17,544 bases of DNA from Thermostichus sp. DRC_bins_24 (GTDB lineage Bacteria; Cyanobacteriota; Cyanobacteriia; Thermostichales; Thermostichaceae), in contig JAUQVK010000021.1 of NCBI GenBank assembly GCA_039794845.1, positions 1 to 17,544 on the forward strand. Direction: 5' to 3'. Made by a program: the position numbers and the translations under genes. The notes beneath the pieces were generated by a model, which was not told the DNA's origin, made no database searches, and worked only from the letters and a program-made list of their open reading frames with translations. Positions 293 through 17,544 of this stretch are shown piece by piece; position 1 is the first letter of the stretch, and each line of letters begins with the position of its first letter.

Positions 293-407
293 AATCTGTT
301 GCTGGGACAATCCGAAACCGGGATCCCCACCAGTCTAGCGATCTCCGCGTTCCCCCAAGTTGGGTGCGATAATCTTGAGATCGTGAAGTCTTGCGCGTTG
401 AATCTCC

Positions 408-1094: not shown

Positions 1095-1105
1095 GGTAAT
1101 GGCAG

Positions 1106-2077
1106 TTAACGCAGCCGCTCCAGTACGTAGTCCACCATCTGGAACAAGGCCCGACGCGCCATAGATTCGGGCAAGCTGTGCAGGGCATCGGCAGCGCGAT
1201 GGGCATAGTCGCGGGCCAACTGACGGGAGCGCGGGATCCCTTCGCTTTGATACACCCACTCCAGGGCCTGCTTTAAGTCTTGCGGATCGGCCAGCTCCGT
1301 CAGGATCAACTCCCGCATTTGGGGAAACTCCTGTAAGGCAAACAGAACGGGCGCAGTTAGGTTGCCTTGGCTGAGGTCGGATCCCACAGGCTTGCCGAGC
1401 ACCTCCGCCGAAGCGGTGAAATCCAGCAAATCATCGACAATTTGAAAGGCAATGCCCAAGTCGCGGCCAAAATCAAACAATCGCTCCGCCACCTCAGGAT
1501 CTACGCCACTGAGGATCCCGGAAGCCTTGGAACTGCCAGAAATCAGAGAAGCAGTTTTGTAAAAGCTTTTGGCCAGATAGTCCTCCATCGACAAATCCGG
1601 ATCGAAGCGGGTCAGGCTCTGGCGCACCTCTCCTTCCGGCAGATCCATAATCACCTTGGAAAGCAGCTTCACCACCTCCAAGTTGTCCAAATTGGCCAAA
1701 TACCAAGCTGCCTGACCAAACAAGTAATCTCCTGCTAGCACCGCCACCCGATTGTCGAAGAGGGTGTTCACCGTATCGATGCCCCGTCGCACATCGGCCG
1801 TATCAATGACATCGTCGTGCACCAGGCTGGCCGTGTGGATCATCTCGGTAATTTCTGCCAAGCGCCAATGTCGTGGGGTGATCTCCCCGTCTGGGGTTGT
1901 GGCACGGGCAATCAGGAGCACAATCGCTGGACGAATCCCTTTCCCCCCCGCCGAAAACAGATGCTCAGCTGCAGTGGCCAGAATCGGGTGTTTGGCACTC
2001 ACCAGCCGCGTCAGGTTCTGGCGTAAACGCTCCAGATCCGCTTCTACGGGGCCAAAGGGGGAAAGCACAGAGGTCAT
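1106..2077 (-). CDS. sds: Solanesyl diphosphate synthase (polyprenyl synthetase, plastoquinone side chain)
   Basis: GGKGIRP, first Asp-rich motif LVHDDVID..RRG, YKTA and second motif FQIVDDLLD. 323 aa, typical of cyanobacterial Sds. Confidence 0.93.
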   Translation of the reverse strand: MTSVLSPFGPVEADLERLRQNLTRLVSAKHPILATAAEHLFSAGGKGIRPAIVLLIARATTPDGEITPRHWRLAEITEMIHTASLVHDDVIDTADVRRGIDTVNTLFDNRVAVLAGDYLFGQAAWYLANLDNLEVVKLLSKVIMDLPEGEVRQSLTRFDPDLSMEDYLAKSFYKTASLISGSSKASGILSGVDPEVAERLFDFGRDLGIAFQIVDDLLDFTASAEVLGKPVGSDLSQGNLTAPVLFALQEFPQMRELILTELADPQDLKQALEWVYQSEGIPRSRQLARDYAHRAADALHSLPESMARRALFQMVDYVLERLR

Positions 2078-2191
2078 GGAGCCGCAGTATGAGGGGTTTT
2101 ACAAAATTTCATATCTTTTCTTATTGTAGAGCACCCCATCGTTCTCAGGGAAAATCGAGCGGTATTATGCAAGCAACAGCTTGTCCGTTCT

Positions 2192-2593
2192 ATGTCCACT
2201 TCTGATCCCCCAATCCACTCCCATTCTCTCCCGCCGCTCTCTATGCAGTCGGAACCCGATTGGCAGGAGGATTGGGAGCTGGCCCTGGAACAGCCGCCGA
2301 TCTCTGGGCGAGCCCACCCCCATCACCATGACCCCCAATCCCGGCGCAAACTGATCAATCGCCTGGCCCGGATTGAGGGACATGTGCACGGGATCCGCTC
2401 CATGATCGAGCAGGATCAGCCCTGCCCAGATGTGCTACTGCAAATTGCCGCTGTCAAGGGGGCGCTGGATCGAGTGGCACGGCTGATTTTGGACGACCAC
2501 ATCCGCCACTGTATCCACCATGCCATTAAGACCGGCGATATCGAAGTAGAGCTCGAAGAACTGCAGCGAGCCTTGGATCGCTTCATCGGATGA
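2192..2593 (+). CDS. inrS: CsoR/RcnR-family metal-sensing transcriptional repressor (InrS-like)
   Basis: His-rich N-terminus (HPHHH), NRLARIEGHV..I..M, PCPDVLLQIAAVKGALDRVARLILDDHIRHC and C-terminal ELQRALDRF closely resemble the cyanobacterial Ni sensor InrS. True start uncertain (2192 or a downstream ATG). Confidence 0.88.
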   Translation: MSTSDPPIHSHSLPPLSMQSEPDWQEDWELALEQPPISGRAHPHHHDPQSRRKLINRLARIEGHVHGIRSMIEQDQPCPDVLLQIAAVKGALDRVARLILDDHIRHCIHHAIKTGDIEVELEELQRALDRFIG

Positions 2594-2888
2594 GCCGGTT
2601 AGAACCACAACAGACGGCAAGCCTTTTGAGGGAGGGAATCCACAGGCAGTGCCGCAATCGAGCTGCTCACGGGTGAACTCGGAAGGGAGAAGCTTGCCCC
2701 TGAGTCGCGTGTTGTATGCTCAGGGCATGACCGGAAAATCGATTTGTTATAGGTTGACTCAGTTGACTAAGAGGGATCCCTGAGGCCAATGCTCCACCGC
2801 CGTCTTCTGAACCAGGAATCCCGGCGGAAGCAGGAGGGGACTAGCCGCCAGATGATGAAGCAATTCGTAACCCCTCGGGAATAGGGCG

Positions 2889-3131
2889 ATGGCGGCTAAT
2901 GGGTACCTCTTCTTCGGTGGCTTGATCTGGATAACGTTGTCAGTGTTGGCGAGTCAGTGTTGGCGAAGCTCGGAAAAAGCGGGGTTGGCCTCAAATTGGG
3001 GTGGAAAACCGCAAACGTGGCAAGTCCCTGTATGCCCAGCACCCTCCTTGCTCTGCGGGAGGCGAACTACCGGGAGGCGAACTACCGGTACAACGCGGAA
3101 CCGGTGGCCCTCGGAACCCCTCAAAAGTTAA
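2889..3131 (+). CDS. Possible small protein with an N-terminal hydrophobic segment (doubtful)
   Basis: 80-aa ATG ORF with GYLFFGGLIWITLSVLA. No recognisable family, and it contains short tandem duplications. Confidence 0.25.
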   Translation: MAANGYLFFGGLIWITLSVLASQCWRSSEKAGLASNWGGKPQTWQVPVCPAPSLLCGRRTTGRRTTGTTRNRWPSEPLKS

Positions 3132-3209
3132 GATTTCTTTACTCGCTGGTCTCGGCGGGATCCCCAAAGGCGTTATGCCTGTGGCACGCTGCGCGAAAAG
3201 GTGATAGTG

Positions 3210-6119: not shown

Positions 6120-6297
6120 AGACCTCAAGCCAACGGAGCCTTTACCCCCCAATCCTCTACCGTGGGTTTCCCCAGCAGAAGGGCCAGCTCCTTGAGAACC
6201 CGAAACCCTGCTTGGAGCAAGTCTACAGAGAAGGCTAGAATCCCTTACTATATGGATGCTCTCCAGCCGCTCCCTTACTTAACCGTACCGATCCGAC

Positions 6298-6966
6298 ATG
6301 TACACCATTTCCGAGTTTGATCGCCTGATCCAGTTTCTCCCGGTGGAGATCCGTCCTGAAGTTCAGATCGAGATCGGTACCCCCGACCAATCTCGGGTTG
6401 TGCAGCCCCTGTGGCGTTTTCCTTGGCAAAAGTACTCTCGCTTTGCCATTGACCTCAGCCGCTGGCAGAAGCTGAGCAGCGATCAACAAAAGATCTATTT
6501 TTTGCGCGAGGCGGTGATGGCCACCGAGCTGGCGCTGGGGGATAATTGGTCGGCGTTGCTGCTGTATCCTGCCCTAATTGGCGCGGGCAGCATGGGGATT
6601 TTGGTGGAGATGCAAATGGGGGATAACCTCGGCATTGGTTTGGCAGCAGGCTTGGCAGCTTCGGCGGTGTTTCTGTTGCGCAAGGCAGAAAAAGGACAAA
6701 AACCTCAGGTCACCGCCGACGAGTTCGCCGTGCGCTACGCTTCCCAAAACGGCTATACCTCGGAGCAAGCTGCCTCCATTTTGTTGAGTGCGCTGCAGCA
6801 GGTGGCGATGATGGAGGATCGGGTTAAAAATGACTACGACACCACGATGCGCCGTCGCAACCTTGAGTTTCTCGCTCAGCGGGGCCTGGGATCCGGAGCC
6901 TTGACCATTAACCCCAAGTATCGCAACAGGGGTCAGAGCTCCAACCCCAATCCGTACCAACGCTAG
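6298..6966 (+). CDS. DUF3318-family cyanobacterial membrane protein
   Basis: Recalled similarity to DUF3318 proteins: FPW..., IDLSRWQKLS..Q, two Gly/Ala-rich hydrophobic helices, ADEFA....NGY...AA..LLSAL..VA..E. Confidence 0.75.
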   Translation: MYTISEFDRLIQFLPVEIRPEVQIEIGTPDQSRVVQPLWRFPWQKYSRFAIDLSRWQKLSSDQQKIYFLREAVMATELALGDNWSALLLYPALIGAGSMGILVEMQMGDNLGIGLAAGLAASAVFLLRKAEKGQKPQVTADEFAVRYASQNGYTSEQAASILLSALQQVAMMEDRVKNDYDTTMRRRNLEFLAQRGLGSGALTINPKYRNRGQSSNPNPYQR

Positions 6967-7916
6967 GCCATGCGCAGCTCCCCTTCCACCTCTAGCCGGG
7001 TATAGGGACCAACCGAAAGAAAGCGTTCTCCCAACATTTCAGCCGCTGCCGGTTGAATCCAGCCCATGCGCTGCAGCAGATGGAGCGCTAGGGCATATTT
7101 GGCTCGCGCCGCCCCATCCTGCACTTTGATGGCCAGACCCATGCCCTCTCCGACGCGGCCAATGCATTGGATCCCTTCGGCACCGGATTTACTGACCAGA
7201 TCCCCCTGGGTAGCCCGCATCAGCTCCGTATCGAAACGCCCGCTGCCCGCCACCATTTCTGGCTGGTGGGTCATGGCCCGCGCCACCGATTCCAAATCTG
7301 GCCGATCCCCTGCGGTTAGTTGGGCGAAGAGGGAGGCCATTTGGTTGAGTTGGAGCTGGTAGGTGGGCACGCCGCAGTCATCCCGAGCGCATAAGAATTC
7401 TTCCGAGGGCATTTGCAACAAATCCGCCAACTTGGCCCGCACCAGAGCTTGTACCGGATGTTGCCGCTGAGCGTAGTCCTGCAACGTCCAGTTTTGGGTA
7501 CGGCTGGCCATGAGCATGGCGGCATGTTTGCCAGAACAGTTGTGACAGAGGGGGCTGGGCTTTTCCGGGGGGGTGGGACAGCTCAACAGTTCTGGGGCCA
7601 GATCGGCTCGCCACAGCATGCCGAAGACTTGCCGGGCATGAGCCATGGTACCCTGATGCGATCCGCACATGATGGCAATATCTTTTTCACTGAGACGATA
7701 GCGCTCTCGAATGCCGGTGGAGAGCATCGCTAAGGCTTGAAAGGGCTTAAGGGCGGAACGGGCAAACACAGGGGTAGTACTGTTGCCGGCCATGGCTAGG
7801 GAACGCCCACGGCTATCGGCCACAACAGCTTGGCAATGATGGGTTGATTCAGTCAGGCCCTCCCGCAGCACATGGATCAGGAGTTCGGGGGCAGCGGAAC
7901 GATTCTCAAATGACAT
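6963..7916 (-). CDS. L-asparaginase II family protein (Rhizobium-type asparaginase)
   Basis: REGLTESTH, RSALKPFQA, HNCSGKHAAM, DDCGVPT and KSGAEG motifs are characteristic of the family. Overlaps the convergent DUF3318 gene by 4 nt. Confidence 0.92.
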   Translation of the reverse strand: MSFENRSAAPELLIHVLREGLTESTHHCQAVVADSRGRSLAMAGNSTTPVFARSALKPFQALAMLSTGIRERYRLSEKDIAIMCGSHQGTMAHARQVFGMLWRADLAPELLSCPTPPEKPSPLCHNCSGKHAAMLMASRTQNWTLQDYAQRQHPVQALVRAKLADLLQMPSEEFLCARDDCGVPTYQLQLNQMASLFAQLTAGDRPDLESVARAMTHQPEMVAGSGRFDTELMRATQGDLVSKSGAEGIQCIGRVGEGMGLAIKVQDGAARAKYALALHLLQRMGWIQPAAAEMLGERFLSVGPYTRLEVEGELRMA

Positions 7917-8037
7917 GAAATCCTGGGGAAGGGCTGAACAAGCCGAGGATAAAAGTGTACACCCTCCCGATCATACGCGAGGAGCTGCCGCGATCTTTCA
8001 GAATGGAACAGTCCCTTCTGGCTCCTTGGTTTTGGCC

Positions 8038-8817
8038 ATGTCGTTGTTTCCGCTGGTGTTTTTGGTCTGTCATGGTAGCCGGGATCCCGAGTATCAGCAG
8101 GCTTTGGCGGATTTGTGGGTTCGGGCTCGGCAGCAGTTGTCCCCTCTGACGGTGGAGCTGGCGCAACTGGAAGGGCAACCCCTGAGCTTGGCGGAACAGA
8201 TCCATCAGCGGCTGCAAGCTCGTCTGCCCCGGGGGGTGGGGTGGTCCCCGGGGAAGGTGGTGTTGCTGTCGCTGTTTATGGGGGGGGGATCCCATGTGGA
8301 GGAGGATTTGCCCTCTGCCCTAGAGCAGGTACAGGCCCGGTGGCCGCAACTCAAGCTGTTACTGACGCCACCGATTGGCCAACATCCGGCCCTCACCAAC
8401 CTCCTGGCCGCTCGGATTCACACCCATCTGCGACAAGCTTCTGAACGGGCGGATGCCTGGATTGTGCTCGGCCATGGCAGCCGTTTGCCGGGGTTTGCTG
8501 CTCAGCTGCAGTTAGGGATCCACCAATTGGAGCAGCGCTTGCCCGGGATCCCGGTGTACGGGGCCTTTGTCACTCAACCCCCCAACCTAGAAACCGCCAC
8601 CATCCACTGCCTACGCCTAAGTCAACATCGCCTGCGGGTGCTGCCGTTTTTTCTGTTTCCGGGGGGGCTATTGCGCGCGCTCCAGGCCCAGGCCCAGCAA
8701 CTGCAGCGGGAATGGCCCCTGCTCCAGATTCAAGTGGAGCCGCCCCTTTGGCAGGATCCCGAGATGATGGAAGCCATTGTGGATACCCTCCAAAGGGCTT
8801 GTCCGGCGCTAGAATAG
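8038..8817 (+). CDS. Sirohydrochlorin chelatase (CbiX/SirB family, two-domain)
   Basis: Two HGSR motifs (LVCHGSRDP, VLGHGSR), LFMGGGSHVEEDLP and VLPFFLFPGG. Located next to cobA. ATG 8038 is preferred over 7915, which overlaps the divergent gene start. Confidence 0.85.
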   Translation: MSLFPLVFLVCHGSRDPEYQQALADLWVRARQQLSPLTVELAQLEGQPLSLAEQIHQRLQARLPRGVGWSPGKVVLLSLFMGGGSHVEEDLPSALEQVQARWPQLKLLLTPPIGQHPALTNLLAARIHTHLRQASERADAWIVLGHGSRLPGFAAQLQLGIHQLEQRLPGIPVYGAFVTQPPNLETATIHCLRLSQHRLRVLPFFLFPGGLLRALQAQAQQLQREWPLLQIQVEPPLWQDPEMMEAIVDTLQRACPALE

Positions 8818-8896
8818 GGCTCCCATTGCCAGAACTTACCCATCACGGCAAGCATTCTCTGCGCTAGGATCCAGCGCACAAGGATTCAGTGACCCT

Positions 8897-9652
8897 ATGG
8901 GCAAAGTGTATTTGGTGGGGGCGGGGCCTGGGGATCCGGGGTTGCTGACGGTGAAGGGAAAGGCCCTGCTCGCCCATGCGGATGTGGTTGTTTACGATGC
9001 CCTGGTGGGATCCCCGATTTTGGAGCTGATCCCGCCGACGGCAGAACGGATTTATGCCGGCAAAAACTGCGGTGCCCACACACTCCCCCAGGAGCAAATC
9101 ACGGCATTGCTGATCGAAAAGGCCCGGGCGGCGGCAGTCGTGGTGCGGCTAAAGGGGGGGGATCCCTTTCTGTTTGGGCGAGGGGGAGAAGAGATGCTGG
9201 CCCTTGTGCAGGCAGGGATTGCTGTGGAGGTGGTGCCGGGGATAACGGCGGGAATGGCGGCCAGTGCCTACGCCGGGATCCCCTTGACCCATCGGGACTT
9301 CAGCTCGTCGGTGGCCTTTGTCACGGGGCACGAAGCTGCGGGGAAATATCGCCCTGAGGTGAACTGGCGCGCCCTAGCGGTGGCAGTGGAAACGCTCGTT
9401 ATCTACATGGGCATCCACAACCTCGGCCATATCGTGGCGGAATTGTTGGCGGGCGGCAAAGCTCCCGATACCCCCGTGGCCCTAATTCGCTGGGGCACCA
9501 CCCCACAGCAAGAGATTCACCTGGCTCGTCTGGATCAGTTGCATCTACAACCGCTGGAGGTGGCCCCCCCGACCGTGGTGGTGGTTGGGGCGGTGGTTCA
9601 TTTGGCCGCTCTCTTGCCCCACCTTAGCCCTTTAGCCCCGCAAGAGCCCTGA
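8897..9652 (+). CDS. cobA: Uroporphyrinogen-III C-methyltransferase
   Basis: VYLVGAGPGDPGLLTVKG, VVYDALV, VRLKGGDPFLFGRGGEE, GIPLTHR and TLVIYMG motifs. Confidence 0.97.
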   Translation: MGKVYLVGAGPGDPGLLTVKGKALLAHADVVVYDALVGSPILELIPPTAERIYAGKNCGAHTLPQEQITALLIEKARAAAVVVRLKGGDPFLFGRGGEEMLALVQAGIAVEVVPGITAGMAASAYAGIPLTHRDFSSSVAFVTGHEAAGKYRPEVNWRALAVAVETLVIYMGIHNLGHIVAELLAGGKAPDTPVALIRWGTTPQQEIHLARLDQLHLQPLEVAPPTVVVVGAVVHLAALLPHLSPLAPQEP

Positions 9653-10440
9653 TGAACGCTTTCTTTCGCAAACTGGCTGCCCTCTTTTCCACCTACTACG
9701 CCTACATGTTGGAGTATCGGGCTGAGTTGATCCTCTGGGTGCTGGCGGGATCCCTGCCCTTGATCATGATGGGGGTGTGGAGTGAGGCAGCCCAATCGGG
9801 AGACTTTTCCCTCTCCTCACTGGAGTTCATCCGCTATTTTCTGGCGGTTTTCATCGTGCGACAGTTCACGATTGTTTGGGTAATTTGGGACTTTGAGCGG
9901 GAAGTGGTGGAGGGCAGACTTTCACCGCTTCTGTTGCAACCGATGGATCCGGTGTGGCATCACGTCACCAGCCACATCGTGGAACGCTTAGCCCGTCTTC
10001 CCTTTACCCTGTTTTTGGTTGGCCTGTTTTTTGTCCTCTACCCGCGTGCCTTTTGGATCCCATCCTGGGAGCAGATTGGGCTGGGATCCCTGGCGGTGCT
10101 GATCGCCTTTACGCTGCGGTTTTTGATGCAGTACACTTTGGCGCTGCTGGCCTTTTGGGTGGAGCGGGTAACCGCAGTGGAGCAATTCCACTTTCTGGTG
10201 TACCTCTTTCTCTCGGGTGTGATCGCACCGCTGGCAGTTTTTCCCTCTGGGTTGCGGGAAATCCTCTCCTGGACCCCGTTTCCTTACCTGATCAACTTTC
10301 CCGCCAGCCTCTGGGTGGGGATCCCTGTGGATATTCCGCGCGGCTTTGCCACAGGTTTGGCCTGGGTTGGGCTGTTTTGGGCGGTCAATCGCTGGTTATG
10401 GCGAAAAGGGTTACGGCAATACGCGGGGATGGGGGCGTGA
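9652..10440 (+). CDS. ABC-2 family transporter permease (DUF990-type)
   Basis: About 6 TM helices, MLEYRAE, EGRLSPLLLQP, PFPYLINFP and C-terminal GLRQYAGMGA. Coupled to cobA through a TGATG overlap. Confidence 0.9.
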   Translation: MNAFFRKLAALFSTYYAYMLEYRAELILWVLAGSLPLIMMGVWSEAAQSGDFSLSSLEFIRYFLAVFIVRQFTIVWVIWDFEREVVEGRLSPLLLQPMDPVWHHVTSHIVERLARLPFTLFLVGLFFVLYPRAFWIPSWEQIGLGSLAVLIAFTLRFLMQYTLALLAFWVERVTAVEQFHFLVYLFLSGVIAPLAVFPSGLREILSWTPFPYLINFPASLWVGIPVDIPRGFATGLAWVGLFWAVNRWLWRKGLRQYAGMGA

Positions 10441-10600
10441 CATCCTCCCGACGCTGACCCTGGAACTCGCCGCGAGCGGCGAGCTCTACAGCGCGGGCTT
10501 CCCAACCTTGCGATTGGGTATTCCTGCCCCACGCCACTTATCTAGGTCACAAACCCCCGACAGACCGACTTGACAGGCGGTTTCCCTTCCCCAGAGTCCC
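10420..10600 (-). ncRNA. Predicted TnpB omegaRNA/reRNA (scaffold overlapping the tnpB 3' end and right end; guide from flanking DNA)
   Basis: TnpB guide RNAs are known to derive from the IS right end. Hairpins are seen on the minus strand at 10445-10497 and about 10502-10520 (CCCAAUCGCAAGGUUGGG). The predicted guide begins GCCCCCAUCCCCGCGUA. The 5' boundary is a guess. Confidence 0.65.
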
Positions 10601-11917
10601 TGGGTACTGACGTTCTCTAGTCCACGACGCAACACCATTTCTGCTGCCGCATGATCCCGATGGGTTCGATACCCACACTCAGGACACCGATGCTCTCTGA
10701 CTGCCAACCCCTTGTTCACCGTGGCAAGACAAGATGGGCAGGTTTGGCTAGTGCCGTTGGGATTGACCTTGGCAAAGTACACCCCACGCTTTCGGCACAC
10801 CCATTGCATCAGAGACAAGAATTGTCCAAAGGCAGCATCTACACAATCTTTGCGCAGCATCCCTCGCGTTAGCCCTTTGGCGTTGATGTCTTCTGCAAAG
10901 ATGGTTTGCGCTTGGTCGCAAAGTTTATGAGCCGTCTTCAGATGGAAATCTTTACGACGGTTGGCCATGCGCTGGTGCATTCTGGCCACTGCGATTTGTG
11001 CTTTCTCCCAGTTTTGAGACCCCTTTTGTTTTCTCGCCGCTCTGCGTTGCAGCAATTGCAGCTTGCGGTGCATCGACTTGAAAAACTTGGGGCGCTCCTG
11101 AAAAGAGCCATCCGAAGTGGTTAAGAATCGCTCCAGCCCAAGGTCAATCCCCATTGCCCGACCATGAACCGAGGCTTCGGGAACCGATACCTCCGATTCA
11201 ATCGTGACGACAACATACCATTGCGTTCCGCGCACCTTGGACAGCACCCGTACTTGCTTGACCTTGAACCCGTCAGGGATGGGGCGATGCAGGTTGATGG
11301 GCACTGCTCCTATCTTTGGCAACTTGATAGCGTTGCCGCTGATGGGGTTGTCCTTGAACTGGGGAAACACAAAGGACTTGAATTGACCGAACTTTTTGAA
11401 ACGTGGGAACCCATGCCCCCGCTTCTGAAAGGCTTCCCAAGTATCGTGCAGTCTACGAATCGTAGTTTGCAACACCTGAGAATGCACCTTACCCAAATCC
11501 GGGAATTGCTTCTTGGCTTTGGGTAGGTTGCTTTGCTGACGGTGATAAGACGGGAACGGCTCATCGGCGGGAATGATGTATGCCTTGTCCAACGAGCATC
11601 GGTCTATCGGACACTTACGCGAAGCCATCCAGTCTTTGAGTTCGCGCAAAGCGTAGTTATACACGCCTCTGCACGTCTCAAGCCACGACCGCAGTTCAGC
11701 CTGCTGTGGAGCATCTGGATAGATTCGATAGGTGTAGTTCAGGGTCAGCACGGCCGTAGTTTACCCAAGCCATGACCACCGGTAAATCTTGTCTCATCCC
11801 CTATGCGCGAAGCGCAGGCTACGCCAACGTGGGGAATCGACAAGCGTGGGGAGTCCATGTATCCCAACGCTGAACGGAGTACCGTTACAGTGCGGGACTT
11901 ACAGCTCTCCGAACCCC
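10437..11917 (-). mobile_element. IS200/IS605-family insertion sequence, tnpB-only (IS1341-like, non-autonomous)
   Basis: Encodes TnpB. On the minus strand the right end reads GAAG-CCCGCGCTG...CAGCGTCGGGAGGATG-TCAC (ending at 10437), and a related left-end hairpin reads AAGT-CCCGCACTGTAACGG..CCGTTCAGCGTTGGGA (11862-11900) preceded by TTGA (11918-11921). There is no room for tnpA. No GGGATCCC was seen inside the element. The left boundary is uncertain by about 3 nt. Confidence 0.85.
10486..11751 (-). CDS. tnpB: RNA-guided endonuclease TnpB (IS605 OrfB family)
   Basis: N-terminal YTYRIYP HTH, GFPRFKK, RuvC-I GIDLG, RuvC-II FAED, zinc finger CPSC...CPEC and RuvC-III RDHAAA. The D-E-D triad is intact. 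GTG start. Confidence 0.97.
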   Translation of the reverse strand: MLTLNYTYRIYPDAPQQAELRSWLETCRGVYNYALRELKDWMASRKCPIDRCSLDKAYIIPADEPFPSYHRQQSNLPKAKKQFPDLGKVHSQVLQTTIRRLHDTWEAFQKRGHGFPRFKKFGQFKSFVFPQFKDNPISGNAIKLPKIGAVPINLHRPIPDGFKVKQVRVLSKVRGTQWYVVVTIESEVSVPEASVHGRAMGIDLGLERFLTTSDGSFQERPKFFKSMHRKLQLLQRRAARKQKGSQNWEKAQIAVARMHQRMANRRKDFHLKTAHKLCDQAQTIFAEDINAKGLTRGMLRKDCVDAAFGQFLSLMQWVCRKRGVYFAKVNPNGTSQTCPSCLATVNKGLAVREHRCPECGYRTHRDHAAAEMVLRRGLENVSTQGLWGRETACQVGLSGVCDLDKWRGAGIPNRKVGKPAL

Positions 11918-12101
11918 TCAATAGCTGAATTTGGAGTATAAGATCTTTGTCAGTACCTCACCTTTGCAGCTACGGTGGGCCCAGCAAGACAGCCTTCGAT
12001 TCAGTCACTATCTTGTGACAGGAGGTTTGGGCTAGATCTTGACACAACTGGCATATAGCACCTTCGCTCCTTTCCCCGACAGCTTCCCCTTTGAGTCAGC
12101 A

Positions 12102-12767
12102 ATGAAGCGTGTACTGGTCGTAGATGATGATCCTCTTTCTCTGAAGGTGCTGAGCCGCCACCTCACCCAGCACGGCTACCGGGTGTGCACGGGCACTTCG
12201 GGTGTAGAAGGATTGCGCCTGTTTGCCCAAGAGCAGCCGGATGTGGTGGTTTCGGATGTGGTGATGCCGGAAATGGATGGCTTTGAGTTTTGTCGGCAAC
12301 TGCGTCAACAGCGCGGCGGCGAACTTGTCCCCTTTATTTTCCTCTCTTCGCGGGGGGAGGTGGATGACCGCGTTCAGGGCTATGAATGGGGAGCGGATGA
12401 CTACATCATCAAACCCTTTGAACCGCTGGAGTTGGTGGCGAAAATCGAAGCGCAAATCGAACGCTCCCGCCGCACCCAATCGGAAATTTTACGCCTGATC
12501 CAACAGCAACCCCAAGCGAAACCAGAGCCAGCCCCACGCCCTACCCCGGCTGAGCTCCCCCTAACTGCTGCCGAAGAGCGGGTGTTTCGGGAGGTGATTC
12601 GTGGCTCCACCAACAAACAAATCGGCGAGAAACTGTTCATCAGCCCGCGCACGGTACAAACCCACCTAACCAACATTCTCAGCAAACTCTCCTTGGAGAA
12701 TCGCTCTCAACTGGTGCGTTTTGCCTACGAACGGGGCTACAGCGCCGAAGAGGAACCGACGGAGTGA
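12102..12767 (+). CDS. Two-component response regulator, NarL/LuxR family (REC + LuxR HTH)
   Basis: VLVVDDD, phosphoacceptor SDVVMP, FLSS, YIIKPF, then LTAAEERV...GSTNKQIGEKLFISPRTVQTHLTNILSKL. ATG 12102 is preferred over TTG 12039. Confidence 0.95.
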   Translation: MKRVLVVDDDPLSLKVLSRHLTQHGYRVCTGTSGVEGLRLFAQEQPDVVVSDVVMPEMDGFEFCRQLRQQRGGELVPFIFLSSRGEVDDRVQGYEWGADDYIIKPFEPLELVAKIEAQIERSRRTQSEILRLIQQQPQAKPEPAPRPTPAELPLTAAEERVFREVIRGSTNKQIGEKLFISPRTVQTHLTNILSKLSLENRSQLVRFAYERGYSAEEEPTE

Positions 12768-12807
12768 GGCGAAAGTGGGCAGAGCAGGGCTCCTCCTTAG
12801 GGCCAAT

Positions 12808-13071
12808 TCAAGCCAGGTGTAATTTCAAAACAGCCCGCGGTGCTTTCCGGACTCGACAGGGGATCCGCTCTCTGCCCAGCCGGGCAAAGGCCTCGTAGCG
12901 GTGGCAGCCCGAGAACCCGTAATACTCTCCCTCCACCTCCAAAACCTCGATAGGTTCTTGCAGACCAATTTCATCGATAGAGGCCATCAGCGCCTGCACT
13001 TTCAAAGGATCCGTTTGGCGGGGCAAGGGTCGGTGAATTTGAGCAAGAGGAATCTCTCGAATCTGGGCCAT
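12808..13071 (-). CDS. srxA: Sulfiredoxin (ParB/Srx fold)
   Basis: 87 aa from MAQIREIPL, containing the sulfiredoxin signature YYGFSGCHRYEA and GLQEPIEV. Confidence 0.92.
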   Translation of the reverse strand: MAQIREIPLAQIHRPLPRQTDPLKVQALMASIDEIGLQEPIEVLEVEGEYYGFSGCHRYEAFARLGRERIPCRVRKAPRAVLKLHLA

Positions 13072-13107
13072 GTTGGGCTTTCTCCTGGTCATAGACAAGC
13101 CCCTTAA

Positions 13108-13128
13108 TCATACTCATTATGAGTTTGA
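13108..13128. promoter_or_regulatory. Inverted repeat upstream of srxA, candidate repressor operator
   Basis: TCATACTCAT-T-ATGAGTTTGA: 10-1-10 dyad with one mismatch, ~37 nt upstream of the srxA ATG. Confidence 0.55.
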
Positions 13129-13248
13129 CTTATCAAGCCTTTACCAATGGGAATGAAATGGGAATGGATTCTCAAGTCAGGGCATGGCAGGATAGCACCA
13201 TTCGCATCTGCACTGTTTTACTCCCTTGATTCAGGAGCCCGTACGGTC

Positions 13249-13830
13249 ATGTGGCAAGCCCTCAAAGCTCTATGGGGAAAGATCGCCGGCCAGGCCCCCC
13301 CTGTGCCCTCCACTTCCACAACCTCGGCACGCAAGCCGGTTCCCCCTAACCTCCAACAACCCCCCCGCGACGATTTATCCAAACGCGCCACCACGCCGAC
13401 TCCGCAGTCTTCTCCCAAACCCACCCCTCCCGCTGCAGGTGGGAAGCGCCCCGTCCCCTCGGAAGAAACCCCGGCGCCTGCGCCAACCGTTGCAGTCCCG
13501 ACACCAGAATCCCGGGAGGAAGCAACGCCTGTATCCGAACCCGCCGCAACTCTCACCCCGAAGGTGGGGGCCACCCACATGGGTGGGGAATCTTCTCCGC
13601 CGGTTGTCGCCTCCCTCTCGCAGGAAAAACCTGCAGACTCGTCCTCGGGAAGGCCTCAAGCAAGACCAATCCCGATCTTTTCAGCTCAACCCACCCCTAC
13701 CGCTGAAAGCATCAACAGCTTTGGGGCCAAAAGCGATATCGGATCCCGTATTTCCAGCATTGCTGCCTCCACCGACAGCGGCCGTGCCGTCAGTTCCATT
13801 TCAGTGGCCAAACTCCGCCAACCGGAATAA
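13249..13830 (+). CDS. Hypothetical Pro/Ser/Thr-rich, probably disordered protein
   Basis: AGGAG at 13233-13237 precedes ATG 13249. Amphipathic MWQALKALWGKIAG is followed by a low-complexity P/T/S/A tract. The ORF fills the gap between srxA and ocp. Confidence 0.65.
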   Translation: MWQALKALWGKIAGQAPPVPSTSTTSARKPVPPNLQQPPRDDLSKRATTPTPQSSPKPTPPAAGGKRPVPSEETPAPAPTVAVPTPESREEATPVSEPAATLTPKVGATHMGGESSPPVVASLSQEKPADSSSGRPQARPIPIFSAQPTPTAESINSFGAKSDIGSRISSIAASTDSGRAVSSISVAKLRQPE

Positions 13831-13868
13831 AGGCCGGGATCTCTTGATATCTTTACAACGCAAACTTA

Positions 13869-13904
13869 CAACACAAAGAGGCGCCCTCCTGTTGGAGAAC
13901 GCCT
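13869..13904 (-). terminator. Intrinsic terminator downstream of ocp
   Basis: Minus-strand RNA AGGCGUUCUCC-AACA-GGAGGGCGCCU forms an 11-bp stem whose two G-U pairs only work on this strand, followed by CUUUGUGUUG. Confidence 0.7.
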
Positions 13905-13946
13905 GCTCCGTTTCCCGCTCCAATTCAGGGAACCATAGTCAAAACC

Positions 13947-14906
13947 TCAGCGAATGAAGTTCAGCAGCTCCTTCGGCGAGGCCAACAGGTCGATGGCCAC
14001 AAAGAAGATCTGGTTGTCCGGGTTCAGCAAAAACCGCCAGGCCACATTCATGCCGACATTGGCACCGAACCAGGGGGTCTGTACTTTTCCAGTCACCTTG
14101 ATTTGGGTATAGCCATCTTCGGCAGGCTCAGATACTCCCCGCTCGGGCAGGAGTTTTAAGTTTTGGCATTCTTCCCGGAAGAAGCGCAAAATCGCCTCGG
14201 TGCCCACAATTGGACGCTGGAAAGGCGGTTGCAGGGCTCCATCCGGCGTGAACAGCTTAATCAGAGCATCGAAATCGTTGGCGTTGAGGTTGTCCATGTA
14301 ATTCAGGACGGTGGGGTTGCTGATCCCTTCGATGGCGACCTTGGTGCGCTCTGACATCGCCTTGGGCGGAACCACCGGCTCGCTGACGCGGTTAAACTGA
14401 CCCAACTTAGCGGGGTCGTAGCCCATATCCACCACAGCATTGCGCAAAATCGTGATCTGCTGGCCGGGATCCGCTGCCTGAATCGCCTGCAGCACAGCCG
14501 AAGCGTTAGCGGAGAGGCGATACCCTTCCGGAATCGGGGCAACGATCCCTTCCTCCATCCATTTCCCCAATTGGTACCAGAATCCCAACTTGACGTTCGG
14601 CGACCAAACCGCATAGGTGCGGCAGATGGGGGTGTCGGCGCGGTTGGCTAAGTCGCACATGGCCTGGGTCTGCTCCCGGAAAGACATTTTCCGGAACTGT
14701 TCGAGGGTGCGCTCCGCCAGTACCATGCTGGCTGCGCCGGGAGCAGCGATGGTGATGGTTTTACCCATCTCCAGGTATGCGAACCAAATCAAGGCCAGCT
14801 GATCCTCGGCACTGAGCTGGTTGAATCGGGCAATGGTTGCAGGGACAACATCCGCAGCAAGGGTCTCCGGAAAGATGGTGCGAGCGGTCTCTACGTTGTA
14901 AGGCAT
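13947..14906 (-). CDS. ocp: Orange carotenoid protein (full length NTD+CTD, OCP1-like)
   Basis: IFPETLAADVVPATIARF, KLGFWYQLG, QQITILRNAVVDMG, NYMDNLNANDF, KVQTPWFG, AWRFLLNP and IDLLASPKELLN. The carotenoid H-bonding Tyr/Trp and the Arg-Glu interdomain pair appear retained. Confidence 0.98.
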   Translation of the reverse strand: MPYNVETARTIFPETLAADVVPATIARFNQLSAEDQLALIWFAYLEMGKTITIAAPGAASMVLAERTLEQFRKMSFREQTQAMCDLANRADTPICRTYAVWSPNVKLGFWYQLGKWMEEGIVAPIPEGYRLSANASAVLQAIQAADPGQQITILRNAVVDMGYDPAKLGQFNRVSEPVVPPKAMSERTKVAIEGISNPTVLNYMDNLNANDFDALIKLFTPDGALQPPFQRPIVGTEAILRFFREECQNLKLLPERGVSEPAEDGYTQIKVTGKVQTPWFGANVGMNVAWRFLLNPDNQIFFVAIDLLASPKELLNFIR

Positions 14907-14975
14907 GATTCAGTCCTATCGGTAAGGGACTTCAAAGTTCAAGCTCCTTTCCTCACCTTACTGTTAGTTACGAGA

Positions 14976-14993
14976 AATGTAAAAAAATGTAAA
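14976..14993 (-). promoter_or_regulatory. HLR1 element (RpaB binding site) upstream of ocp
   Basis: Minus strand TTTACATT-TT-TTTACATT is a perfect match to the HLR1 consensus (G/T)TTACA(T/A)(T/A)-N2-(G/T)TTACA(T/A)(T/A), 70 nt upstream of the ocp ATG. Confidence 0.8.
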
Positions 14994-15025
14994 TTGACTG
15001 AGGGATCCTCGCTCCCTGCAGCTCC

Positions 15026-15346
15026 CTACATACGGGCCAAGGAGGTGATCTTGGCCAGTTTGTCGCGGCTCAGCCCCTCTAGGTCTGCTACATTCAGCCA
15101 ACCCTCCCGCAGCAACTCCGCAAACACAAAGATCAAGCTTGGATAGCTGTAGTCATATTTGCCGTCAAGTTCGTGGCGTCGGGCGCTGAGAAAGTCGTGC
15201 AGTCGCCAGAGATCCTCCAATCGGGTAATAGAACCAGCTTTAGCCCGTACATCCTCAATTAGGGTAGTGGTCTCGCGGGTGTAGGCGTTCTTAAAAGCTG
15301 CTTGGGCAATTTGCTGTTCGGTGACAGACCAATCGTGAGCGTTCAT
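15026..15346 (-). CDS. frp: Fluorescence recovery protein
   Basis: WS..EQQIAQAAF..AY.RE, LWRLHDFLSARRHELDGKYDY, LIFVFAELLREGWL and LEGL..DKLAKI motifs. Adjacent to ocp. ATG 15346, alternative TTG 15352. Confidence 0.96.
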   Translation of the reverse strand: MNAHDWSVTEQQIAQAAFKNAYTRETTTLIEDVRAKAGSITRLEDLWRLHDFLSARRHELDGKYDYSYPSLIFVFAELLREGWLNVADLEGLSRDKLAKITSLARM

Positions 15347-15398
15347 GGGCAATGCAAAGGCATAAGTTTATTAAAAAGCTTCACATAGATTAACATCT

Positions 15399-15734
15399 CT
15401 ACTCCAGGGATCCGCTTTCGGCGCTTTTCCCAGTCGCTCTTTTTTGTAAGGTGAGCAACAAGGCTTGCCATTCCATGGGATCCCGGTACACCAAGAGCAG
15501 ATCTTCCATGAGGCCCTCATCCTCTTCAATGTCCTGTCTTGCCCAGGCTGAGGGAGTTGTACCAAAATCTCGCTGCACGGTTTTGGGATCCCTGCGGGTT
15601 TCCCGATCCAGGGCTTTCACCCGGATGCGCCGCAAAAGATAGATGGCCTCATCCAAAAGCTCCTGCAGGGCCATGCCTTCTTCTTCCGCAATCGCTTGCA
15701 ATTGGTCGAGGGGTGAGAGCGACTGAGTTTCCAT
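15399..15734 (-). CDS. Hypothetical acidic, helical 111-aa protein
   Basis: ATG preceded by GGAG, with an in-frame stop upstream. Protein-like helical composition. No family recognised. Confidence 0.7.
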   Translation of the reverse strand: METQSLSPLDQLQAIAEEEGMALQELLDEAIYLLRRIRVKALDRETRRDPKTVQRDFGTTPSAWARQDIEEDEGLMEDLLLVYRDPMEWQALLLTLQKRATGKSAESGSLE

Positions 15735-15978
15735 CCTGATCTCCCAAGGATTCGTACGCCCGGATCATACCCAGTTCTGAGAAAGCGTTTGGGGTGGGTT
15801 CTTTGCCATGAAGGTTCTCAGTGCTGTCTACTGGACTGGCGGTGCTATCCTTAGCCGGGGCTGCTGAGGTCATCATCCAGGCCGGTAAGATCATCGAATA
15901 AAAGACCATTTGAGACCATTTGCCGGCAGCACCTGGAAAGCCCAGGGGATTGAGATTTTGGTGTTGGAGTTGGATTTT

Positions 15979-16701
15979 ATGGTTGAGCTGATCCCGCCCC
16001 GCCGCCGTGCCCTCGAGCACCTTTTGAATCGACTTGGGTTCAAAGATTCGGCTTTACTGGAGCAACTGCGCTGGGATCTCTTGGATCAAGCCCTGATTCA
16101 CCCATCTCTGGATAGCCAGCGGAATAATGACCGGCTGGAGTTGTTGGGGGACTCCGTCTTACGAATTTTGGCTACGGAATTCTTGTTTGAGTCTTACCCG
16201 GACCTGTCGGTGGGAGAGTTGACCGCTATTCGCTCTGATCTGATTAGCGATGCACATTTGGCAGAACTGGCGGATCTGCATGGGCTGGAGCGTTACCTCG
16301 AGTTGGGATCCAGCTCCCAGAGAGACCCCGCTGGACGGGATCGCCGGTTGGCAGATGCTTTCGAGGCTCTCCTGGGATCCTTTTACCTCAGCTGGGGGAT
16401 TCACACTCTGCCCAGGCTCCATCCCTGGTTGGATCCTTATCTCCGCCAACGGGTCAAGGCATGGTTTCAAGATCCGACTCGGCGCAACCCCAAAGCAGCT
16501 TTACAGGAACTCACCCAACGCATTTGGGGCAGTCTACCAGAATATCGCCTGGTGGCAGCCGAAGAACATCCTCCTCATTTCACCATGGAAGTTTGGGGAC
16601 AGGGACAATGTTGGGGTCGAGGGGAAGGCCGCTCAAAAAAGGCAGCTGAAATGGCCGCGGCTGCTGAAGCCTACGGGCACTTGCAGTCGGAGGAGACATG
16701 A
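15979..16701 (+). CDS. rnc: Ribonuclease III
   Basis: QALIHPS, NNDRLELLGDSVL, LADAFEALLG and a C-terminal dsRBD (NPKAALQE...PEY...GRGEGRSKKAAEMAAA). ATG 15979 is preferred over TTG 15910. Confidence 0.96.
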   Translation: MVELIPPRRRALEHLLNRLGFKDSALLEQLRWDLLDQALIHPSLDSQRNNDRLELLGDSVLRILATEFLFESYPDLSVGELTAIRSDLISDAHLAELADLHGLERYLELGSSSQRDPAGRDRRLADAFEALLGSFYLSWGIHTLPRLHPWLDPYLRQRVKAWFQDPTRRNPKAALQELTQRIWGSLPEYRLVAAEEHPPHFTMEVWGQGQCWGRGEGRSKKAAEMAAAAEAYGHLQSEET

Positions 16702-16898
16702 GGCGCGCAAAAGCAGAGAATCACCGCTATGAATTGGCCAGTTGGCTGTTTTTGGTGGGAAGCAGCTTATTTGGGGTGAGCGAGCTCATGAACTTGGGTA
16801 CTGGTATGGAGCTCGTGCAAACCCTGCTCGGCCTTGTGGCCAGCCTTTTGTTTACCGTGGGCAGTGCCCTGTTTGTGCTCGATGCCCGACAACCTTAA
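16698..16898 (+). CDS. Small two-TM membrane protein (YrhK-like)
   Basis: ATGA overlap with rnc. Two similar hydrophobic helices, WLFLVGSSLF and LLFTVGSALF. Confidence 0.75.
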   Translation: MRRAKAENHRYELASWLFLVGSSLFGVSELMNLGTGMELVQTLLGLVASLLFTVGSALFVLDARQP

Positions 16899-16910
16899 AT
16901 AACTTAAATA

Positions 16911-17019
16911 AAAATTGTCCCCTTGCGGGGAAGGAGGTGGACTGGTTCGTAAACATAGAACAGCCGGCACCTCACGGAAATGAGTGTCCGTCCCCGAAGG
17001 GGATGTGGTTCTAGGCTTC
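16911..17019 (-). CRISPR. Degenerate two-repeat, one-spacer CRISPR-like mini-array (no cas genes in window)
   Basis: The minus strand reads ...AACCACATCCCCTTCGGGGACGGACAC-[36 nt]-AACCAGTCCACCTCCTTCCCCGCAAGGGGAC. Both units resemble the cyanobacterial type III repeat family ending ...TTCCCCGCAAGGGGACGGAAAC (from recall). The period is 73 nt. Confidence 0.5.
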
Positions 17020-17310
17020 ATCTAAAGGTAGATCGAGGGAGCTAAAGAGATCCCGTAACGAACGTTTTTCAGATTTTGGTTTGGGTTGTTTTGCATAGTC
17101 TAAAGCCGCCCAAAGGCGCTCTGCATTGGCTTTTGATGACAGTTGATACAAGGATTCTCGCAGCGAACTCAGTTCATGAGCTGCCAAAAGAACCACATCC
17201 TCCCCTTCATCATCCAATTCAATGATGATCTCATCATCTTCTTGAATCACCTTTTGGCACAAGGCCTCGAGATTACGCTTGGCATCGGCCAATTTTTCAA
17301 CTCTAACCAT
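17011..17310 (-). CDS. yefM: Phd/YefM family antitoxin
   Basis: AKRNLEALCQKV..DDEIII...EDVVLLAAHELSSLRESLYQLSSKANAERL matches the YefM pattern (..ETxYLLxSxANAxRL). Confidence 0.88.
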   Translation of the reverse strand: MVRVEKLADAKRNLEALCQKVIQEDDEIIIELDDEGEDVVLLAAHELSSLRESLYQLSSKANAERLWAALDYAKQPKPKSEKRSLRDLFSSLDLPLDEA

Positions 17311-17368
17311 GGTTTTCTATCAATTCCCAATCAGTGTTGCGGAACCTCCCTCTGGCTTAACGGAGGCA

Positions 17369-17404
17369 GGGATCCCCAGGATAGTAGCTTATCCCAGGGA
17401 TCCC
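17369..17404. repeat. Inverted repeat built from two GGGATCCC octamers between toxin and antitoxin
   Basis: GGGATCCC-CA-GGATA-GTAGCT-TATCC-CA-GGGATCCC. Confidence 0.75.
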
Positions 17405-17412
17405 GTGGAGAG

Positions 17413-17544
17413 TTACTTACGGTGTTTGCCGTAATGGTAGCGGGCCGCTAAGAAGACGACCTTGTGGTCATCAACCCAGTAGACCAATCGGTGCTCTTCG
17501 TTGATGCGGCGAGACCAAGTGCCCGGTTCAACGTATTTAAGTGT
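17413..17544 (-). CDS. yoeB: Txe/YoeB family toxin, C-terminal part (5' end outside window)
   Basis: Not in the ORF track. Manual translation gives [43 protein letters not shown], with the WSRRI..EHRLVY and RYHY signatures. Confidence 0.93.

Follow-up and report, generated by a model that had tools for sequence, protein, structure and literature searches.

The 17,544-nucleotide (nt) stretch of contig JAUQVK010000021.1 analysed here, referred to below as the window, comes from the cyanobacterium Thermostichus sp. DRC_bins_24 (assembly GCA_039794845.1) and raises the question as to what two hairpins resembling those of CRISPR repeats are doing directly behind the stop codon of an antitoxin gene. 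The window represents nearly all of a 17,589-nt contig that ends inside a yoeB-type toxin gene, and the element in question lies on the minus strand, at the 3′ end of this yoeB and of the yefM-like gene that follows it, two genes that may form a toxin–antitoxin (TA) operon. To judge from sequence comparison, purifying selection acts on the element, which belongs to a conserved RNA family with at least five members; its pseudo-repeat, pseudo-spacer and pseudo-repeat are, on the same evidence, derived from a repeat family that accompanies type III CRISPR-Cas loci. The reading that we favour, and to which we would give about an even chance of being right, is that the element constitutes a degenerated two-repeat mini-CRISPR in the 3′ untranslated region (3′ UTR) of the TA operon, probably processed by Cas6, and a type III/protein-TA counterpart of the CreA and CreR RNAs.

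Read on the minus strand, the element begins 8 nt 3′ of the yefM-like stop codon (TAG, 17013–17011) and, on inspection of the sequence, comprises two hairpin units one array period apart. Unit A runs U (17003), CCCC (17002–16999), UUC (16998–16996) and GGGG (16995–16992), followed by ACGGACAC (16991–16984), the first base of which is at the same time the final A of the hairpin. The 36 nt that had been quoted as a spacer in the first-pass annotation, and that are called the pseudo-spacer here, occupy 16983–16948, and AACCAGTCCACCTCCTT comes next, before the hairpin of the second unit. Unit B is composed of the flank CCACCTCCTT, then CCCC (16930–16927), GCAA (16926–16923) and GGGG (16922–16919), then AC and finally AATTTTTATTT. 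The distance between the hairpins is 72 nt from start to start and 73 nt between the 3′ ends; the first-pass annotation had already given two related hairpin units on the minus strand at the yefM stop, and its coordinates and strings are correct.

The hairpins were compared with known repeats by scanning genome contigs with the pattern CYYYTTCCCCGCAAGGGGAC, which returned 117 loci, none of them from the window's own genome and most of them cyanobacterial arrays with periods of 72–78 nt, and by building a covariance model (R2) from the 32 distinct array consensus repeats found in these loci. All 32 consensus repeats end in ...TTCCCCGCAAGGGGAC[G/T]GAAAC and have in common ACCTYTT-CCCCGCAAGGGG-AC[G/T]GAAAC; the hairpin is invariant in R2 because the scan pattern demanded it. 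The repeat ending that the first-pass annotation had given for cyanobacteria is thus a real one, found in 32 of the 32 consensus repeats and also in the Type I repeat of Synechococcus OS-A and OS-B′, which, reverse-complemented, ends in ...CCTTTTCCCCGCAAGGGGACGGAAAC (Table 1 of PMC2612747, a source used here in part). Named relatives from the hot-spring Synechococcus group bear the repeat as well (loci L004, L063, L078 and L090).

Measured against this family, the element has, as far as sequence can tell, the layout of one repeat-spacer-repeat unit of the type III-associated repeat ...ACCTYTTCCCCGCAAGGGGAC[G/T]GAAAC. Unit B has the family's hairpin, a 5-bp stem closed by a GCAA loop (UCCCC-GCAA-GGGGA), without any change, and Unit A has the same stem with a UUC loop. 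The 8-nt handle AC[G/T]GAAAC is represented in Unit A by ACGGACAC, identical at 7 of 8 positions, while Unit B carries ACAATTTT in that place and has no handle. The flank CCACCTCCTT of Unit B fits the ACCTYTT of the family only with a 1-nt insertion (by eye), and the 5′ part of the repeat is replaced in Unit A by the end of yefM. The 72 nt between the hairpin starts fall within the array period of about 72–78 nt. Neither unit is a full-length match to the 36–37 nt repeat, R2 aligning over model positions 17–31 in Unit B and 17–34 in Unit A only; nor is the element an array of three or more repeats with strain-variable spacers, as there are two units and the pseudo-spacer differs from that of the closest relative at 4 of 36 positions. 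In comparison with the arrays of this family (Type I of OS-A/OS-B′ in the part of PMC2612747 used here; Nostoc, Aliinostoc, Leptolyngbya and others), the element is thus alike in the Unit B hairpin, the 7/8 handle, the ACCT..CTT flank of Unit B and the 72-nt period, and unlike them in consisting of two partial units, in lacking a leader, in having a "spacer" conserved between genomes and in sitting at the 3′ end of a TA operon.

Could two such hairpins have come together by chance? The bare hairpin CCCCNNNNGGGG (CCCCN4GGGG) is found four times in the window against 1.67 expected, and it is unremarkable there because 17 of 200 shuffles reach the same count; GGGGACGGAAAC, allowing up to two mismatches, is found three times against 2.2 expected. 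Of the eight R2 matches in the window, Units A and B are the best two; they share a strand and are separated by 72 nt, a placement with a chance probability of about 5e-4 by our own arithmetic. A search of the window with 4227 Rfam models gave no match at the gathering threshold, the best local matches being CRISPR-DR57 (18.2 bits for a threshold of 39, E=0.44) and CRISPR-DR18 (16.7 bits for a threshold of 50, E=5.1), and a permissive scan of 16600–17400 added weak hairpin-level matches and chance snoRNA matches only. As judged from the sequences, the strongest argument against a chance pair is that four further genomes have the element conserved as a whole.

Comparison of the window with Synechococcus-type loci by BLAST returned a sole match, L086, a 569-nt piece at a contig end of a Synechococcaceae metagenome-assembled genome (MAG; JAAUUM010000128.1). 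Three further look-alikes were found among the 52 loci with a single pattern match: L076, 20 kb of a Nostoc MAG, and two 620-nt pieces whose flanks are not visible, L108 from the isolate Nodularia sp. UHCC 0506 (NZ_JAYGHH010000004.1) and L115 from a Jaaginema MAG (JAWQFT010000075.1). The window and its four relatives bring the total to five elements from about three independent lineages. An 11-nt motif, TCCGTGAG[A/G]TG, is common to all five and absent elsewhere in the window and the 117 loci; it reads TCCGTGAGGTG in the window and L086 and TCCGTGAGATG in the other three, which consist of the first hairpin, ACGGAAAC, the motif, a variable middle and CCCATCTCYTT-CCCCGCAAGGGG-AC, after which the sequence is unrelated. 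The handle of Unit A accordingly reads ACGGAAAC in three of the five members and ACGGACAC in two. The asymmetry that the first-pass annotation had taken as the pattern needed for the release of a single CRISPR RNA (crRNA) is present in five of five: Unit A keeps hairpin and handle, Unit B keeps its 5′ flank and hairpin and has no handle. A Scytonema locus with two units (L099) aligned at the repeats, lacks the motif and was omitted from the structural alignment and from the model described next.

A covariance model (R1) built from the five elements scores them at 98–108 bits and the repeat-spacer-repeat units of real arrays at about 20–52 bits; it follows from this gap that the element has the architecture of an array unit and yet forms a separate tight group. 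Over all 117 loci (1.4 Mb), R1 found no members beyond the five. In the 20 kb of L076, the only R2 matches below E=0.05 are the four half-repeats of its two mini-arrays, the second of which is of another kind and is described further below.

The alignment of the window with L086 covers the 3′ two thirds of yefM and the entire element and ends three bases past Unit B (...GGGGACAAT), the downstream DNA of L086 being unrelated to that of the window. Over 73 aligned codons of yefM, nucleotide identity is 79.5%, with proportions of synonymous (pS) and non-synonymous (pN) differences of 0.497 and 0.112 and a ratio of the corresponding rates (dN/dS) of 0.15. Over the 93 nt of the element there are 8 differences, which is far fewer than at the synonymous rate (binomial P=1.8e-17) and also fewer than at the overall coding divergence (P=0.0016). 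A second pair behaves in the same manner: of 96 positions of the element, 4 distinguish L076 from L108, against a pS of 0.195 in the adjacent higA gene (P=1.2e-5), and their similarity likewise stops directly after Unit B. The finding of a full array or of plain terminator hairpins in relatives had been named beforehand as a refutation of the mini-array; the closest relative has the same two units instead. A small open reading frame (ORF) inside the element (GTG start, 23 codons) was considered and rejected as unconserved: a comparison of the window with L086 shows 4 non-synonymous changes as against 2 synonymous ones, and the frame of L076 meets a stop after 3 codons (read by eye).

The second constant of the family is its neighbour. 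The link to a TA locus proposed in the first-pass annotation extends to the related genomes, in that the element lies directly 3′ of an antitoxin gene in all five members, and these antitoxins belong to two unrelated families: YefM-like in the window and L086, and HigA in L076, L108 and L115 (TIGR02607, E=8.5e-10, 4.1e-8 and 1.7e-7, respectively). The toxins visible upstream are YoeB in the window and a HigB-like protein in L076 (PF05015, E=1.3e-7). The YefM-like protein is rare, with three found in a large protein set. In the window the gene order is yoeB, a 102-nt gap and yefM. The usual arrangement is yefM-yoeB and a toxin-first order is unusual for YefM-YoeB; yoeB and yefM are thus a putative cognate pair only. 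A cognate yefM may lie past the contig end, and contig breaks often fall at repeats, so that an array or an insertion sequence (IS) element just beyond the break in yoeB is possible. The gap between the two genes also carries a CCTCC...GGAGG hairpin.

The predicted RNA is strongly folded. The element of the window, folded alone, reaches −42.1 kcal/mol (z=−4.4), a stability matched by none of 200 shuffles, and RNAalifold places four helices (P1–P4) with 29 pairs on the five sequences, each of which, folded singly, gives the same four hairpins. P1 and P4 are the hairpins of Units A and B; in the consensus, P2 joins the ACGGA of the handle to UCCGU, and P3 joins GAG[A/G]UG to the CA[U/C]CUC of the 5′ flank of Unit B. 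The cells of the alignment assigned to pairs are indeed paired in 93% of 143 cases, as compared with 37–56% when the 3′ partners are slid. Changes on both sides occur at 5 of the 29 pairs, all of them in P3; the covariation score is reached by 1 of 500 shuffles and the number of cells with double changes by 4 of 500, P2 and P4 being uninformative in this respect because neither ever varies. The G-U pairs of P1 and P3 would be A-C mismatches on the opposite strand; they fit the minus strand only, which indicates an RNA of the same strand as the antitoxin gene. In the window and L086 only, the loop of Unit A (UUC) is complementary to that of Unit B (G-AA), which makes possible a 12-bp helix between the two units (16991–17003 with 16918–16931) closing the whole element; in both sequences it is predicted to be 6 kcal/mol better than the local hairpins, and the three HigA-linked members cannot form it.

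The first-pass annotation had described the mini-array as an orphan away from cas genes, a description that is not borne out. Because the contig ends inside yoeB, the upstream side is invisible, and the window gives no ground for placing the element away from cas genes. In L076, higB directly follows a type III-D cas operon with Csx10 (E=3e-117), Csx7 (E=7.5e-74), a TIGR03986 RAMP protein (E=1.6e-38) and a TIGR02619/ring-nuclease-like protein. In L086, an ORF that begins about 90 nt past Unit B encodes the N-terminal part of a CRISPR-associated protein of the TIGR02619/APE2256 family (PF09651); the best 120 of its 128 matches have 55–84% identity and include proteins named from Synechococcus JA-3-3Ab and JA-2-3B′a. 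Between Unit B and this gene, L086 carries at 330–385 the perfect, operator-like inverted repeat GTGTTCACAATTAATTAGAACAC, which would put the mini-array just upstream of the control region of the cas-associated gene.

How such an element would act can be proposed in outline. The element would be transcribed together with yefM as the 3′ UTR of a toxin-first TA operon, and the P1 and P4 hairpins would be the sites of the Cas6 endonuclease of a type III system, which would cut at the 3′ base of each hairpin. Cutting would leave the TA mRNA ending in a Cas6-bound hairpin right behind the antitoxin stop and would also free a crRNA-like RNA of about 73 nt (16991–16919) with a 5′ handle and a body mostly folded into P2 and P3. 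Through either product, the TA module or a small regulatory RNA would come to rely on the CRISPR machinery.

Several points weigh against this reading. The transcription of the element, its cleavage by Cas6 and any effect on the TA pair are steps that we infer. The sample amounts to five members of about three lineages; the invariance of the Unit B hairpin among them is uninformative because the relatives were found by a pattern requiring exactly this hairpin, and the match of Unit A to R2 is, taken alone, non-significant. The loop of Unit A differs from that of the repeat family, which, from the sequence, makes its recognition by Cas6 uncertain. The fold was predicted from the same five sequences in which the pairs were counted, and two measures of covariation are unremarkable, the number of pairs with a double change being reached by 97 of 500 shuffles and that of further pair types by 472 of 500. 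In the predicted structures, the helix between Units A and B would hide both putative Cas6 sites, and the pairing of the handle in P2 would hinder the loading of an effector complex. Finally, profile searches of 1–16900 of the window showed no cas genes, cas6 included, and adjacency to cas genes is known for two of the four relatives only, namely both of those that have any visible flank (L076 and L086).

The systems closest to the proposed one are the CreA, CreR and other crRNA-like RNAs; the papers on CreTA, CreR, crRNA-like RNAs and Racrs, in the parts used here, concern type I, type V and phage cases (PMC12737573, 10.1101/2024.12.27.630466, PMC10651486), and CreA is matured by Cas6 (PMC12737573, PMC10120712, likewise used in part). 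With the CreA, CreR and crRNA-like RNAs of types I-B, I-E, I-F and V-A, as covered by the available part of PMC10120712, the element shares two degenerate repeats around a pseudo-spacer and an asymmetric decay that spares the handle side of the first unit and the hairpin side of the second. It also shares with CreA and CreR an adjacency to cas genes, seen in the relatives L076 and L086, and the link to TA, of which CreTA is the best-known case. Unlike them, its repeat family goes with type III systems, which target RNA, and its neighbours are protein type II TA pairs (YoeB/YefM or HigB/HigA); it is a putative 3′ UTR without a promoter-like site of its own, its pseudo-spacer is strongly folded and no complementary promoter or target was found nearby. 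It is not a CreTA module, as there the crRNA-like antitoxin represses a small toxic RNA, CreT, and the neighbours in the window are the protein genes for YoeB and a YefM-like protein. Racrs, or solitary repeat units, are likewise repeat-derived RNAs outside arrays, proposed to engage Cas proteins; in the available part of PMC10651486 they are single repeats on phages and plasmids, while the element has two units, a conserved structured body and a chromosomal housekeeping context. A search of a plasmid collection (BLAST, distant mode) gave no match for yefM plus element or for the element of L076. A literature search, limited to the available library and the terms used and with supplementary tables such as those of PMC2612747 and PMC10120712 lying outside its scope, turned up no account of protein antitoxin genes followed by a mini-array of a type III repeat family. 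A passage in the section "Viritopes in the Genomes" of PMC2612747 may concern a conserved pseudo-spacer of this sort.

In the strict form of the first-pass reading, the element would be a true guide, the pseudo-spacer of which pairs with a cellular RNA or promoter and steers the type III effector onto the toxin, the cas genes or another target. The handle is retained (ACGGAAAC in three members, ACGGACAC in two), the repeat decay is asymmetric as in degenerated mini-CRISPRs with CreA architecture (PMC10120712, part of the text), the place in which a seed would be expected, the 5′ end of the pseudo-spacer, is taken by the 11-nt motif, and the element of L086 is situated about 90 nt upstream of the start of a cas-associated gene. 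However, no complementary site beyond chance was found in the 17.5 kb of the window or the 20 kb of L076, the best ungapped matches being 26/36 and 27/40 with G-U pairs counted, and the complement of the motif with up to two mismatches occurs 7 times in the window and 4 times in L076 for 8.6 and 4.2 expected. This search also covered the visible end of yoeB and the yoeB-yefM spacer, which contain no complementary site. A 15-nt run near position 2200 of the window, counting G-U, was taken as chance, about 0.3 being expected by our own arithmetic. Beyond the 11 nt of the motif, moreover, the pseudo-spacer is unconserved between lineages and stays a hairpin by compensatory changes, and the motif itself pairs with the handle and the Unit B flank of the same element. 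When the segments between the hairpins were compared with 939 real segments (handle, spacer and next flank) from 51 loci of the same repeat family (mean −9.9 kcal/mol, standard deviation 4.6), those of the five elements, at −19.2 to −21.6 kcal/mol, ranked 20–37 of 939, an unusual degree of folding. The 36-nt "spacer" of the first-pass annotation thus hardly resembles a free guide, the structured pseudo-spacer and the lack of a visible local target leaving that part unsupported, and we regard a guide function as unlikely.

We consider it improbable, too, that the element is a Cas-independent structured 3′ UTR, a terminator and/or a barrier to 3′ exonucleases, with a likeness to CRISPR repeats by descent only, although selection on structure is what the data show. 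The element begins just past the stop codon, between convergent genes, its stability is that of a strongly structured RNA, and in the window Unit B is, like an intrinsic terminator, a G+C-rich hairpin with a U-run that a terminator scan calls terminator-like together with AAUUUUUAUUU. The U-run, however, is absent after Unit B in all four relatives (L086, L076, L108 and L115), and an intrinsic terminator leaves the second hairpin, the handle, the 72-nt period and the conserved body unexplained. A stabiliser, for its part, needs neither the sequence of the handle, nor the exact hairpin of the repeat family, nor the period of an array, and type III cas genes stand beside both relatives in which a flank can be seen.

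A decaying, non-functional array remnant, that is, a last spacer with a degenerate terminal repeat lying by chance beside a TA pair, would agree with the current view of type III mini-arrays. These are found near 10–14% of type III loci and 16% of III-D loci, and in the part of PMC10120712 used here, where positional conservation and targets were not seen, they are judged degraded and non-functional. Terminal repeats normally lose their 3′ end, as does the third repeat in L090, and two-repeat arrays occur in Synechococcus OS-A (Table 1 of PMC2612747, used in part). A remnant is nevertheless very unlikely here: in each of two independent pairs the element has changed far less than synonymous sites have, three distant lineages show the same motif and the same fold, with compensatory changes, and the position relative to the antitoxin stop recurs in five of five members.

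That the element is the boundary of a mobile TA cassette, as a recombination or insertion site or a carried piece of a target array, and owes its conservation to mobility, is highly improbable, since the exact end of similarity after Unit B in both pairs, with differing genes downstream (a convergent YrhK gene as against a cas-associated gene; a helix-turn-helix (HTH) gene with a second mini-array as against a different ORF), and the apparent insertion of higB, higA and the element between the last cas gene and the HTH gene with its mini-array in L076, stand against the absence of a recombinase or transposase seen next to any member (the TnpB gene of the window is 5 kb away), the absence of a matching half-repeat upstream of higB in L076, the occurrence of one element type behind two unrelated antitoxin families and the G-U pairs and compensatory changes, which point to selection on RNA. 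An integron attC-like site was considered because similarity ends at the element, and set aside: R″/R′ core motifs (RYYYAAC...GTTRRRY) were not seen by eye and an integrase is absent.

Features of the element, of the window around it and of related mini-arrays. Unless a locus is named, positions refer to the window.
Feature	Position	Strand	Evidence
Whole conserved element (group 1 mini-CRISPR)	16912..17011	-	R1 98 bits, by construction (the window is in the training set); 91.4% identical to L086 over 93 nt
Unit A hairpin P1, UCCCC-UUC-GGGGA, repeat-type stem with deviant 3-nt loop	16991..17003	-	R2 8.8 bits, E=1.7, model positions 17–34
Handle-like ACGGACAC, 7/8 identical to the family's ACGGAAAC	16984..16991	-	Sequence comparison
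P2 hairpin, ACGGA (16991–16987) with UCCGU (16978–16974)	16974..16991	-	5 pairs, invariant in 5/5; predicted in each single-sequence fold
Conserved 11-nt motif UCCGUGAGGUG (UCCGUGAGAUG in the three HigA-linked members)	16968..16978	-	Only in the five elements among the window and 117 loci
P3, GAGGUG (16973–16968) with CACCUC (16938–16933, the Unit B 5′ flank), and lineage-specific apical stem	16933..16973	-	15 pairs, 5 with both-side changes (at the fourth pair, A-U replaced by G-C)
Unit B hairpin P4, UCCCC-GCAA-GGGGA, identical to the repeat-family hairpin, handle absent	16918..16931	-	R2 20.6 bits, E=0.0071; local Rfam matches CRISPR-DR57, CRISPR-DR18
AAUUUUUAUUU run 3′ of Unit B, terminator-like in the window genome only	16906..16916	-	Terminator scan: 16936–16919 and 16932–16918
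yefM-like (Phd/YefM) antitoxin gene, 99 amino acids (aa)	17011..17310	-	NF008499 YefM E=1.6e-9, PF02604 E=2.4e-6, both below curated cut-offs
yoeB-yefM spacer, 102 nt, two GGGATCCC copies in imperfect palindrome	17311..17412	-	GGGATCCC at 17369 and 17397; non-significant CRISPR-DR47 match, E=7.9
yoeB-type toxin gene, 3′ end, last 43 codons, 5′ part cut by contig end	17413..17544	-	PF06769 YoeB_toxin E=2.1e-14, profile positions 44–80 of 80
YrhK-like small membrane protein gene, convergent, outside the element; similarity to L086 already over	16698..16898	+	PF14145 E=1.3e-8
Orange carotenoid protein gene (Carot_N and NTF2), adjoining fluorescence recovery protein (FRP) gene	13947–14906 and 15026–15352	-	Domain matches
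TnpB / IS605 OrfB-type gene among housekeeping genes	10486–11751	-	OrfB_IS605, Cas12f1-like TNB and HTH_OrfB_IS605 domains
Group 2 mini-arrays in L031, L060 and L027	9885–10027		
Group 2 mini-arrays in L067 and L073	9994–10136	-	
Group 2 mini-array in L030	7380–7525	-	
Group 2 mini-array in L076	10528–10670		
Group 2 mini-array in L054	9994–10140	-	

A second kind of two-unit mini-array with repeats of this family, termed group 2, was found in eleven of the single-match loci (L027, L030, L031, L054, L060, L067, L072, L073, L079, L104 and L112), with a divergent copy in L075 and, in L076, the second mini-array at 10575–10668. Its hosts are Microcoleus, Coleofasciculus, a Nostoc MAG and others, and it is placed at the 3′ end of type III-D cas operons: in nine of the nine loci with an upstream flank (ORFs were listed for 10 loci), the cas ORFs before the mini-array make up one and the same set, annotated by NCBIfam in L031 and L076 and recognised by eye from the termini elsewhere. 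An antitoxin-like HTH_37 gene often stands between the cas genes and the mini-array, joined in L060 by a Gp49/RelE-type toxin gene, and no ordinary array was seen within 10 kb downstream of the mini-array in these loci. Group 2 shares with the group of the window the repeat family, the asymmetry of the two units, the preceding antitoxin-like HTH gene and a pseudo-spacer with a conserved 5′ end and a variable hairpin. It differs in the pseudo-spacer itself (ACGCCTCTAG..., nearly identical in Nostoc and Microcoleus), the start of which (CTCTAGT) pairs with the leader ACTAGAG rather than with the handle, in a promoter-like TTGACTTTT box of its own and in an ordinary folding energy between the hairpins (ranks 251–766 of 939). 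The literature search, within the limits given above, found no published description of group 2.

Two further arrangements were observed. In L030 (8150–8245, minus strand), a 130-aa ORF and the HTH gene flank a third kind of two-unit element; its body is related to neither group 1 nor group 2, and its first handle is ATAGACAC, ending in ACAC as in the window. In Synechococcus sp. H60.4 (L069:10001–10020, minus strand) and H55.6 (L089:301–320, plus strand), a solitary 5′-truncated repeat, ..AAAATCCCTACCTTTTCCCCGCAAGGGGACGGAAA[C/T], occupies an orthologous intergenic region, where a second unit is absent. The rest of the window is of a housekeeping nature, with genes for signal peptidase, polyprenyl synthetase, UvrA, asparaginase II, CbiX, a response regulator, the orange carotenoid protein, FRP, RNase III and YrhK, plus the one TnpB. 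The sequence GGGATCCC, a highly iterated palindrome of the kind known from the hot-spring Synechococcus A/B lineage, occurs 20 times in the window against 0.74 expected, a count reached by none of 200 shuffles; to judge from this excess, the window probably belongs to that group. L086 carries GGGGATCCCC as well. No sigma-70-like sites were found in 16000–17544.

Regulatory RNAs of CRISPR origin, such as CreA, CreR and other crRNA-like RNAs, have been described for DNA-binding systems of types I and V; here, a type III-family mini-array with a conserved fold is under clear purifying selection and stands behind an antitoxin gene in every member. The wider possibility, which we hold only tentatively and think doubtful as a general rule, is that cyanobacterial type III loci carry their own class of selected mini-CRISPRs in the 3′ ends of protein TA operons, where processing or binding by Cas6, and perhaps by the effector, would tie the balance between antitoxin and RelE-family toxin to an intact CRISPR-Cas system. 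Such a class would represent a version of the CreTA "addiction" principle that uses a protein toxin and an RNA-targeting system, and would contradict the current view of type III mini-arrays as dead remnants. With its roughly 90 nt, the element is a compact RNA open to testing, and the covariance model makes it possible to map the family. If the reading is true, RNA-targeting CRISPR systems also use repeat-derived RNAs for housekeeping and ordinary protein TA pairs can be wired to CRISPR-Cas, and such wiring could explain the stable keeping of costly loci in cyanobacteria.

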